53,743 nucleotides of DNA from positions 1-53,743 of the forward strand of contig DATJGX010000028.1 in the NCBI GenBank assembly GCA_035494435.1, given 5' to 3'. The DNA is from Patescibacteria group bacterium (lineage in GTDB: Bacteria; Patescibacteriota; Saccharimonadia; Saccharimonadales; Saccharimonadaceae). Shown in pieces: positions 40,486 to 40,927 of the stretch; positions within the stretch are counted from its first letter, which is position 1; every line of letters begins with the position of its first letter. The translations under genes were made by a program, and so were the position numbers. The notes under the pieces are model-generated. The model worked only from the letters and a program-made list of their open reading frames with translations. It had not been told where the DNA came from and ran no database searches.

Positions 40486-40514
40486 TTGACAAATATATAA
40501 CAAATCGGTATAAT
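40486..40514 (+). promoter_or_regulatory. Perfect consensus sigma70 promoter TTGACA-17-TATAAT
   Basis: TTGACA lies at 40486-40491 and TATAAT at 40509-40514, separated by a 17-nt spacer. Confidence 0.65.
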
Positions 40515-40520
40515 CTCGAA

Positions 40521-40904
40521 ATCGTTTCGACCTAGAGCGACTCATGCCAGTATGTGAGCTAAATCACGGACACCATACGAACTGATTGTATATACTGCAC
40601 GCATCGTCGCCCGAACACTGCAGAGGTGTGGTTGGACGATGGTATCGTCGACGGCCATGGACCGTCGATAGGAGTGCGTGGCGCAGGGACCCCATGCACT
40701 CACGGGGTCGGCCATGCCGATACCCACCTCGACTCGGGCGCCTAGCCTGCATCGCATCCCGATCGGGACGAGTCGAGCACGTAGATCGCGCATACGCGCC
40801 CGCGAATGCCGCAGCGAGATCTACGTACCCCTCGGTGGTCCGGATTGCGTCCACGAGCGCACCGGACCACCGAGGCGGTGAACCACTTCGGTGGTCTTTT
40901 TTTT
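40521..40904 (+). ncRNA. Candidate ~385-nt structured RNA (stand-alone sRNA or cis-regulatory leader), class unknown
   Basis: It is bounded by a consensus promoter and an intrinsic terminator and has no credible ORF. It is G+C-rich from about 40590. At least six stems of 6-14 bp can be drawn by hand. Confidence 0.5.
40865..40904 (+). terminator. Intrinsic terminator with a competing upstream antiterminator helix
   Basis: The terminator stem pairs gaccaccga (40865-73) with tcggtggtc (40888-96) and is followed by T8. The same 5' arm can instead pair with 40830-43 in a 14-bp helix. Confidence 0.75.
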
Positions 40905-40927
40905 GTGCCTGAGTATAATAGAGGTAG

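Follow-up and report, generated by a model that had tools for sequence, protein, structure and literature searches.

The window, that is, the whole 53,743 nt stretch of DNA analysed here, carries a G+C-rich non-coding unit in the spacer between a divergent 162-aa gene and a gene for a DNA-repair helicase-nuclease, which combines UvrD domains with PD-(D/E)XK (Table 1). The closest relatives of the helicase-nuclease are found in Saccharibacteria (TM7) genomes. Gene order is kept in these relatives, running from a tRNA methyltransferase through the 162-aa gene on the minus strand and the helicase-nuclease to Dus, and in several of them a unit of this kind occupies the same spacer. Open reading frame lists give the minus-strand gene 168 aa, and its homologues start at the second Met, which places the true start at 162 aa. 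The 162-aa protein has no Pfam, NCBIfam, PDB-sequence or PDB-fold match despite a confident AlphaFold model (pLDDT 90.7), and the neighbour therefore gives no clue to the RNA unit. Elsewhere in the window, long or G+C-rich stretches with no ORF of at least 120 aa lie at 30789–31833 (1045 nt), 9736–10379 (644 nt), 35366–35670 (305 nt, G+C 0.59) and 7850–8157 (308 nt, G+C 0.55). A ribosomal protein L10 leader is recognised by Rfam upstream of rplJ/rplL (17492–17676; 49 bits, threshold 44), with a 62-nt insertion in its terminal hairpin.

Table 1. Features of the unit and its immediate context, as positions in the window.
Feature	Position	Strand	Details
Divergent conserved 162-aa gene (context)	39961..40449	-	990 homologues (~1000), throughout Saccharibacteria
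Sigma-70-type consensus promoter	40486..40514	+	-35 TTGACA 40486-91, 17-nt spacer, -10 TATAAT 40509-14
Predicted primary transcript, ~385 nt, G+C-rich non-coding hairpin chain	40521..40904	+	MFE fold; no ORF or Rfam match
5′ multibranch domain	40521..40640	+	Closing helix 40521-32/40630-40; MFE helices; G+C lower than in the rest
Variable body, five stable hairpins/junctions	40645..40826	+	MFE fold; G+C 0.64-0.69
Conserved 3′ G+C-clamp hairpin	40827..40879	+	-39 kcal/mol; core 40830-43/40862-75; aligns with L001, L006, L008
Intrinsic terminator	40882..40904	+	ACCAC-UUCG-GUGGU + U8; alternative longer stem 40865-73/40888-96 overlaps the clamp
Helicase -10 box and start (context, outside the RNA)	40914..40930	+	TATAAT 40914-19, 8 nt before ATG 40928

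Promoter, fold and 3′ end of the unit

The perfect TTGACA-17-TATAAT promoter reported in a preliminary description of this DNA was confirmed at its coordinates and matches the consensus at 12/12 positions, the sole such match in the 53.7 kb window. Four matches with no more than one mismatch occur in the window, compared with 0.19 expected. Across ~190 kb of the window and related loci combined, TTGACA-N16-18-TAnn[A/T]T is found only at this unit and at the unit downstream of the helicase gene. In the alignment of orthologous spacers that carry the unit, TTGACA is invariant (7/7) and the -10 box is always present (7/7), the promoters of the full units taking the form TATTGACA-17/18-TAnnnT. A distance of 23 nt separates TTGACA from the extended -10 box of the divergent gene for the 162-aa protein, which is too great for it to act as the -35 element there. 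Transcription would start near 40521.

Downstream of the promoter, the 385 nt hold no credible ORF, as first described, with neither codon periodicity nor protein homologues. The rise in G+C noted earlier from about 40590 is equally clear, at 0.64–0.69 over 40600–40900 compared with 0.51 for the window. The unit folds with −173.6 kcal/mol (z = −5.7), a value equalled by 0/100 shuffles, while a helicase coding segment of equal length gave z = +0.6 as a control. An equally good fold is obtained for the minus strand (z = −6.0), G-U pairs being few, and thus the fold alone assigns no strand and is compatible with a hairpin formed at the DNA level. The plus strand is assigned as the probable sense strand because it bears the promoter, the T-run and A-rich unpaired positions. 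In the window unit 30% of unpaired plus-strand positions are A and 19% are G, and over this unit and its orthologues the unpaired A fraction is 0.30–0.42, with G poorly represented. The loops include GNRA and UUCG tetraloops, which, together with the A-rich, G-poor unpaired plus strand, are typical of a structured RNA read in the sense direction.

The MFE fold divides the body into elements at 40647–69, 40672–701, 40704–25, 40728–77 and 40779–826, the fourth of which is a three-hairpin junction with a 9-bp closing helix. Stems drawn by hand in the preliminary description at 40648–54/40662–68, 40728–36/40769–77 and 40779–87/40818–26 are exact complements and recur in the MFE fold. The stem proposed at 40688–93/40704–09 is also complementary but competes with the MFE helices 40672–83/40690–701 and 40704–12/40716–25. 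Within the 5′ domain, the 13-codon mini-ORF (40544–85), reading MPVCELNHGHHTN, is present as described but is not conserved in orthologous units.

At the 3′ end, the 14-bp helix first described as an antiterminator is 100% complementary and forms the core of what we term the clamp. The longer terminator stem was also correctly identified, together with the upstream copy of its 3′ arm. TCGGTGGTC occurs twice, at 40832–40 and 40888–96, as the sole direct repeat in the unit, and the second copy, which pairs with 40865–73, is followed by T8 at 40897–904. The clamp state of the window unit is favoured over the 9-bp terminator state by 14 kcal/mol, and once the clamp has formed, a 5-bp UUCG hairpin followed by U8 still remains.

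The same spacer in related genomes

Loci were sought with the helicase-nuclease. The genome scan yielded three and the metagenome scan one, and most orthologues came from exact-protein look-ups. The Logan runs SRR33375166-186 were the source of L005, L006, L007, L015 and L022. Besides the window, four distinct genomes contain a full unit of 339–609 nt that is G+C-rich and devoid of codon periodicity: L001 (609 nt; helicase 78% identical), L005 (561 nt; 75%), L006, which is the same as L007 (421 nt; 73%), and L008 (339 nt; 71%). Two loci are partial. The contig of L022 carries the TATTGACA promoter and breaks off after ~70 nt of the unit, and L015, which has the closest 162-aa protein (81%), retains the promoter and about 130–140 nt, including the 3′ module, with ~430 nt of body missing. 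The six contigs L016–L021, from a neighbouring lineage (helicase 76%), have a 36-nt spacer and no unit, and the unit is also missing from L012, L014 and L002. In a tree of the helicase, all genomes that carry the unit group together in a single clade, at whose edge L016 lies, which fits a single origin of the unit and vertical descent. The spacer of L009–L011 contains an unrelated palindrome of ~150 nt (L009 2830–2990; L010 2840–3000; L011 2895–3060). This is a conserved, imperfect and very long hairpin of another clade, without a consensus promoter.

Every full unit reads, from 5′ to 3′, promoter, G+C-rich non-coding body, very stable G+C hairpin and short hairpin with a U-run, after which come the helicase -10 box (gTATAATAGA) and ATG. 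Neither BLASTN nor MAFFT detected similarity among the bodies of the window, L001, L005, L006 and L008, and no similarity was found among the transcribed 5′ ends of the orthologous units. The four orthologous units nevertheless fold with z = −5.0, −4.9, −6.0 and −4.4, and whole-unit G+C is 0.55–0.62 in every lineage, with synonymous sites saturated between unit-bearing genomes. Only the promoter, the 3′ G+C-clamp hairpin and the terminator are conserved.

Clamp counterparts lie at L001 5895–5944, L006 2172–2224 and L008 2892–2935, and with the window they share the form CCCyyGGkGG...CCmCCycGGG. Across these four sequences 87.5% of cells are paired, compared with 36–56% when the partner columns are slid. 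Homologues with covarying base pairs, proposed in the preliminary description as a test of the unit, were thus found for the clamp: 6/16 pairs have changed on both sides and 0/16 on one side only. Against the reading as an RNA gene, terminator-type hairpins covary whatever the RNA does. With four or five divergent sequences, covariation is shown for this one hairpin. A short hairpin and U-run stand at the equivalent place in L001, L005, L006, L008 and L015, and the final terminator hairpins are short throughout (−4.5 to −12 kcal/mol). The final ~100 nt of the unit share 90% identity between L005 and L015, compared with 52–56% at third codon positions in the two flanking genes, which argues that the 3′ module is under purifying selection.

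Beyond the helicase gene, the helicase–Dus spacer contains a second strongly promoted G+C-rich unit (44190–45129) that is more widely conserved than the first, and odder. It begins with a near-consensus promoter with an extended -10 box (TTGACA-17-TGaTACAAT, 44190–218), followed in order by a conserved 5′ hairpin, a small ORF of 54 aa (44318–482), a degenerate tRNA-like domain, a G+C-rich structured tail of ~450 nt and a terminator (45081–102). Promoter and layout are kept in L001, L005, L006, L008, L011 and L013, and even in the distant L002. The tRNA-like element (44542–44645) has normal acceptor, D and T arms and a 40-nt hairpin in place of the anticodon loop. It scores 30.8 bits against the Rfam tRNA model and is not called by ARAGORN. 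Its counterpart in L013 (3910–3964) has a sub-threshold match (25 bits) to both ends of the tmRNA model; that in L002 (9576–9654) has a 4-base anticodon; and that in L006 (6017–6105) reaches 51 bits as a tRNA yet is not called by ARAGORN. As no alanine-identity G3:U70 pair is visible, the element is not an ordinary tmRNA. Third-position G+C of the small ORF is 0.93 in the window (44318–44482), 0.86 in L006 (5811–5981) and 0.78 in L011 (6582–6746); all other genes of the window, ribosomal protein genes included, lie at 0.37–0.63. The ORF is non-homologous between lineages. In the window and L006 it encodes a 54-aa cysteine-free protein (66% identical to each other), and in L001, L002, L008, L011 and L013 a Cys-rich zinc-ribbon or CxxCxGxG-type peptide.

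The helicase gene and known RNA families

In about half of the genes listed for the window, a -10-like box (often TGnTAnAAT) precedes the ATG by only 6–12 nt and a Shine-Dalgarno sequence is lacking, examples being those at 3814, 10380–12578(-), 31834–33492(-), 40928 and 45130, while AGGAG-type sites are present at genes inside operons. This points to widespread leaderless mRNAs in the source genome. The helicase-nuclease gene fits this leaderless pattern, a -10 box of its own following the terminator. The arrangement TATAATAGA-N4-5-ATG at the helicase is kept in relatives with and without the island, and the leaderless layout also occurs in the island-free L016–L021 and L014. No Shine-Dalgarno sequence precedes the helicase gene in L001, L005 or L008. 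The helicase -10 box of island-bearing genomes has no recognisable -35 element, the terminator sitting in that place, where the island-free L016 has TGACAA.

In the preliminary description the 3′ end was read as the layout of an attenuator or riboswitch expression platform in front of the helicase gene. Our comparison does not bear this out. No sensor domain is conserved among the five syntenic units, the gene has its own leaderless -10 box that is kept in relatives without the island, and the overlap of terminator and antiterminator is seen in the window only, the corresponding hairpins of L001, L006 and L008 being physically separate. Given that the overlap is window-specific and the clamp strongly favoured, a conserved switch is not supported.

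Searches of Rfam 15 returned nothing for the unit in the window and six loci at gathering thresholds, and no family with E < 0.05 in E-value mode with permissive filters, in agreement with the earlier failure to assign a known motif. The best sub-threshold match, ctRNA_pGA1 (21.6 bits against a threshold of 45), covers the clamp and terminator only. ARAGORN found no tmRNA in the unit. BLASTN comparisons with relatives, with the window itself and with phages and plasmids returned no match to the unit apart from its 3′ end, and viral contigs, scanned for the clamp as an exact pattern, did not contain it. No description of such RNAs was found in the literature on Saccharibacteria.

Several element classes were considered and rejected. 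Captured coding DNA from a high-G+C host, or a small protein, is contradicted by the five units, none of which shows codon periodicity, and by translated searches with the longest ORF of each strand, which returned only P0241, a 13-stretch low-complexity match. For a sponge of the CsrB/RsmZ type, the count of 8 GGA motifs is close to the 6.8 ± 2.4 expected, two of them are mostly unpaired, and the four orthologues are similar. The fold consists of separate hairpins and junctions, whereas 6S RNA forms a rod of ~180–200 nt with a large bubble at its centre, and no 6S match was obtained. A MITE or other mobile element is discounted by terminal inverted repeat scores equal to those of shuffles and by the lack of a second copy in the window and loci (~190 kb). 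A CRISPR or TIGR-type guide array is discounted by the lack of tandem or spaced direct repeats, the 9-nt terminator arm alone being repeated. As for a riboswitch or attenuator, no Rfam cis-regulatory family was matched and no 5′ region, mini-ORF or overlap is conserved. Pairing between the unit and the second island was not indicated, since duplexes predicted within a genome gained nothing in energy over those predicted between genomes; prediction over the full lengths was uninformative.

The unit can be compared with several known systems. Enterobacterial sRNAs bound by Hfq or ProQ likewise have their own promoter, an intrinsic terminator, an intergenic location, no ORF and a conserved 3′ hairpin module, but the unit is 3–6 times longer, almost wholly paired and without a conserved single-stranded seed; we know of no RNA chaperone in Saccharibacteria. 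The CsrB/RsmZ sponges are also chains of hairpins a few hundred nucleotides long with a terminator, fast sequence change and high expression (predicted for the unit), although the unit shows no enrichment of the GGA loop motifs, most of which are paired. Attenuators and riboswitch platforms share with the window unit a long hairpin that uses one arm of a U-run terminator stem, but here neither an aptamer nor the overlap is conserved, the gene downstream carries a leaderless promoter of its own and orthologues of that gene occur where the element is missing. OLE, GOLLD, ROOL and raiA (Rfam) are, like the unit, long G+C-rich structured intergenic regions without an ORF. None of their models matches, and they keep their cores across genera whereas the unit keeps only its 3′ hairpin. 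By analogy only, the leaders and spacers of rRNA operons combine a consensus-strength promoter, a hairpin-rich body whose sequence and length differ greatly among close relatives, and conserved ends, as does the unit, which differs in having no attached rRNA or tRNA gene.

A putative RNA gene and alternative readings

With moderate confidence we favour a model in which the unit is an independent, fast-evolving structured RNA gene restricted to one Saccharibacteria clade, where promoter, 3′ module and the stable fold of the body would be constrained and the sequence of the body would not. An independent ncRNA gene is suggested by its own promoter and terminator, the lack of an ORF and syntenic conservation, and the stand-alone abundant sRNA that the preliminary description held in reserve is now the favoured reading, its expression being a prediction. 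In such a model the consensus promoter would drive abundant transcription of a compact G+C-rich hairpin chain that ends at the short intrinsic terminator, just ahead of the helicase-nuclease gene and its separate leaderless promoter. Selection would keep the promoter, the 3′ module (clamp and terminator hairpin) and a stably folded body, leaving the body sequence free. We infer that the RNA is expressed with the plus strand as sense and may act in trans as a stable RNA, with whatever partner this would entail. The 3′ module may be the functional or protein-binding, stabilising part, and the variable body may provide nuclease resistance, bulk or lineage-specific contacts. Tight termination could also shield the downstream leaderless promoter from the strong promoter upstream. 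No partner, target or conserved single-stranded motif of the RNA was found. Its absence from L016–L021 and truncation in L015 indicate that the unit, or its body, is dispensable.

Those same losses would also be expected if the unit were a transcribed but functionless insertion, either foreign G+C-rich DNA or the decayed remnant of a mobile element or RNA gene behind a promoter, now drifting and being lost. We regard this as possible but unlikely. Bodies that cannot be aligned and range from 130 to 609 nt are consistent with drift, as is a composition far from that of the rest of the genome, and the unrelated palindrome in the spacer of L009–L011 implies that the site tolerates insertions. However, although synonymous sites are saturated between these genomes, all units keep their G+C content and folding (z ≤ −4.4), both of which neutral decay would have erased, and the promoter and 3′ module are under purifying selection. 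Nor does the unit show the terminal inverted repeats or second copies, in the window or loci, the phage, plasmid or viral matches, or the coding trace that an insertion might have left.

Whether the unit instead serves the helicase gene in cis, as a structured leader subject to read-through or attenuation or as a promoter–terminator cassette that tunes or insulates the helicase promoter, is a second question, and we consider such a role rather improbable. The unit does point at the helicase gene and ends 24 nt before its ATG, its terminator takes the place of a -35 element in island-bearing genomes, and the shortness of the terminator hairpins makes some read-through plausible. The clamp and the longer terminator stem of the window unit also preclude each other. 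However, this overlap is confined to the window, and a clamp that is both 14 kcal/mol more stable and transcribed first does not make a balanced switch. Neither a conserved sensor domain nor a match to a riboswitch or leader family was found, and the helicase gene keeps a leaderless -10/ATG geometry used by many genes in the window. Without a Shine-Dalgarno sequence at the helicase in L001, L005 and L008, read-through transcripts would be poor templates, and relatives do without the unit altogether. Least probable, and close to refuted, is a very divergent housekeeping RNA (RNase P RNA, 6S, SRP or tmRNA) or a small-protein gene: the size and G+C fall within the range of RNase P RNA and tmRNA, covariance models can miss members from candidate phyla and several ORFs can be drawn in the unit, but the Rfam and ARAGORN searches were negative, a housekeeping RNA would be neither absent from L016–L021 nor cut to 130 nt in L015, the hairpin chain lacks the 6S architecture, and a protein is opposed by the lack of codon periodicity and homologues and by a mini-ORF that is not conserved.

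Returning to an independent RNA gene, a more speculative extension, to which we give little credence, is that the RNA unit and the second unit beyond the helicase form a pair of RNAs peculiar to this clade of epibiotic Saccharibacteria, both very highly expressed and quick to diversify. Diversity of the bodies would then be adaptive, for example in RNA decoys or effectors matched to phage or to the actinobacterial host with its high G+C, and the 3′ module alone would be fixed for stability, recognition or export.

For annotation, the unit should not be labelled a riboswitch, nor used to infer regulation of the helicase gene. Saccharibacteria have genomes of ~1 Mb with little spare DNA, and a unit of 0.4–0.6 kb behind the strongest promoter in 54 kb, kept in several lineages, represents a notable investment. 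The pattern of constraint, with fold and G+C kept, sequence not kept and the 3′ module alone fixed, is unusual and poses a question of its own. To our knowledge, almost nothing is known of non-coding RNAs in Saccharibacteria. Natural transformation has reportedly allowed members of this group to be manipulated genetically. If the RNA is abundant, it would be among the first clade-specific structured RNAs described in the phylum and would offer a handle on the RNA biology of an obligate epibiont.
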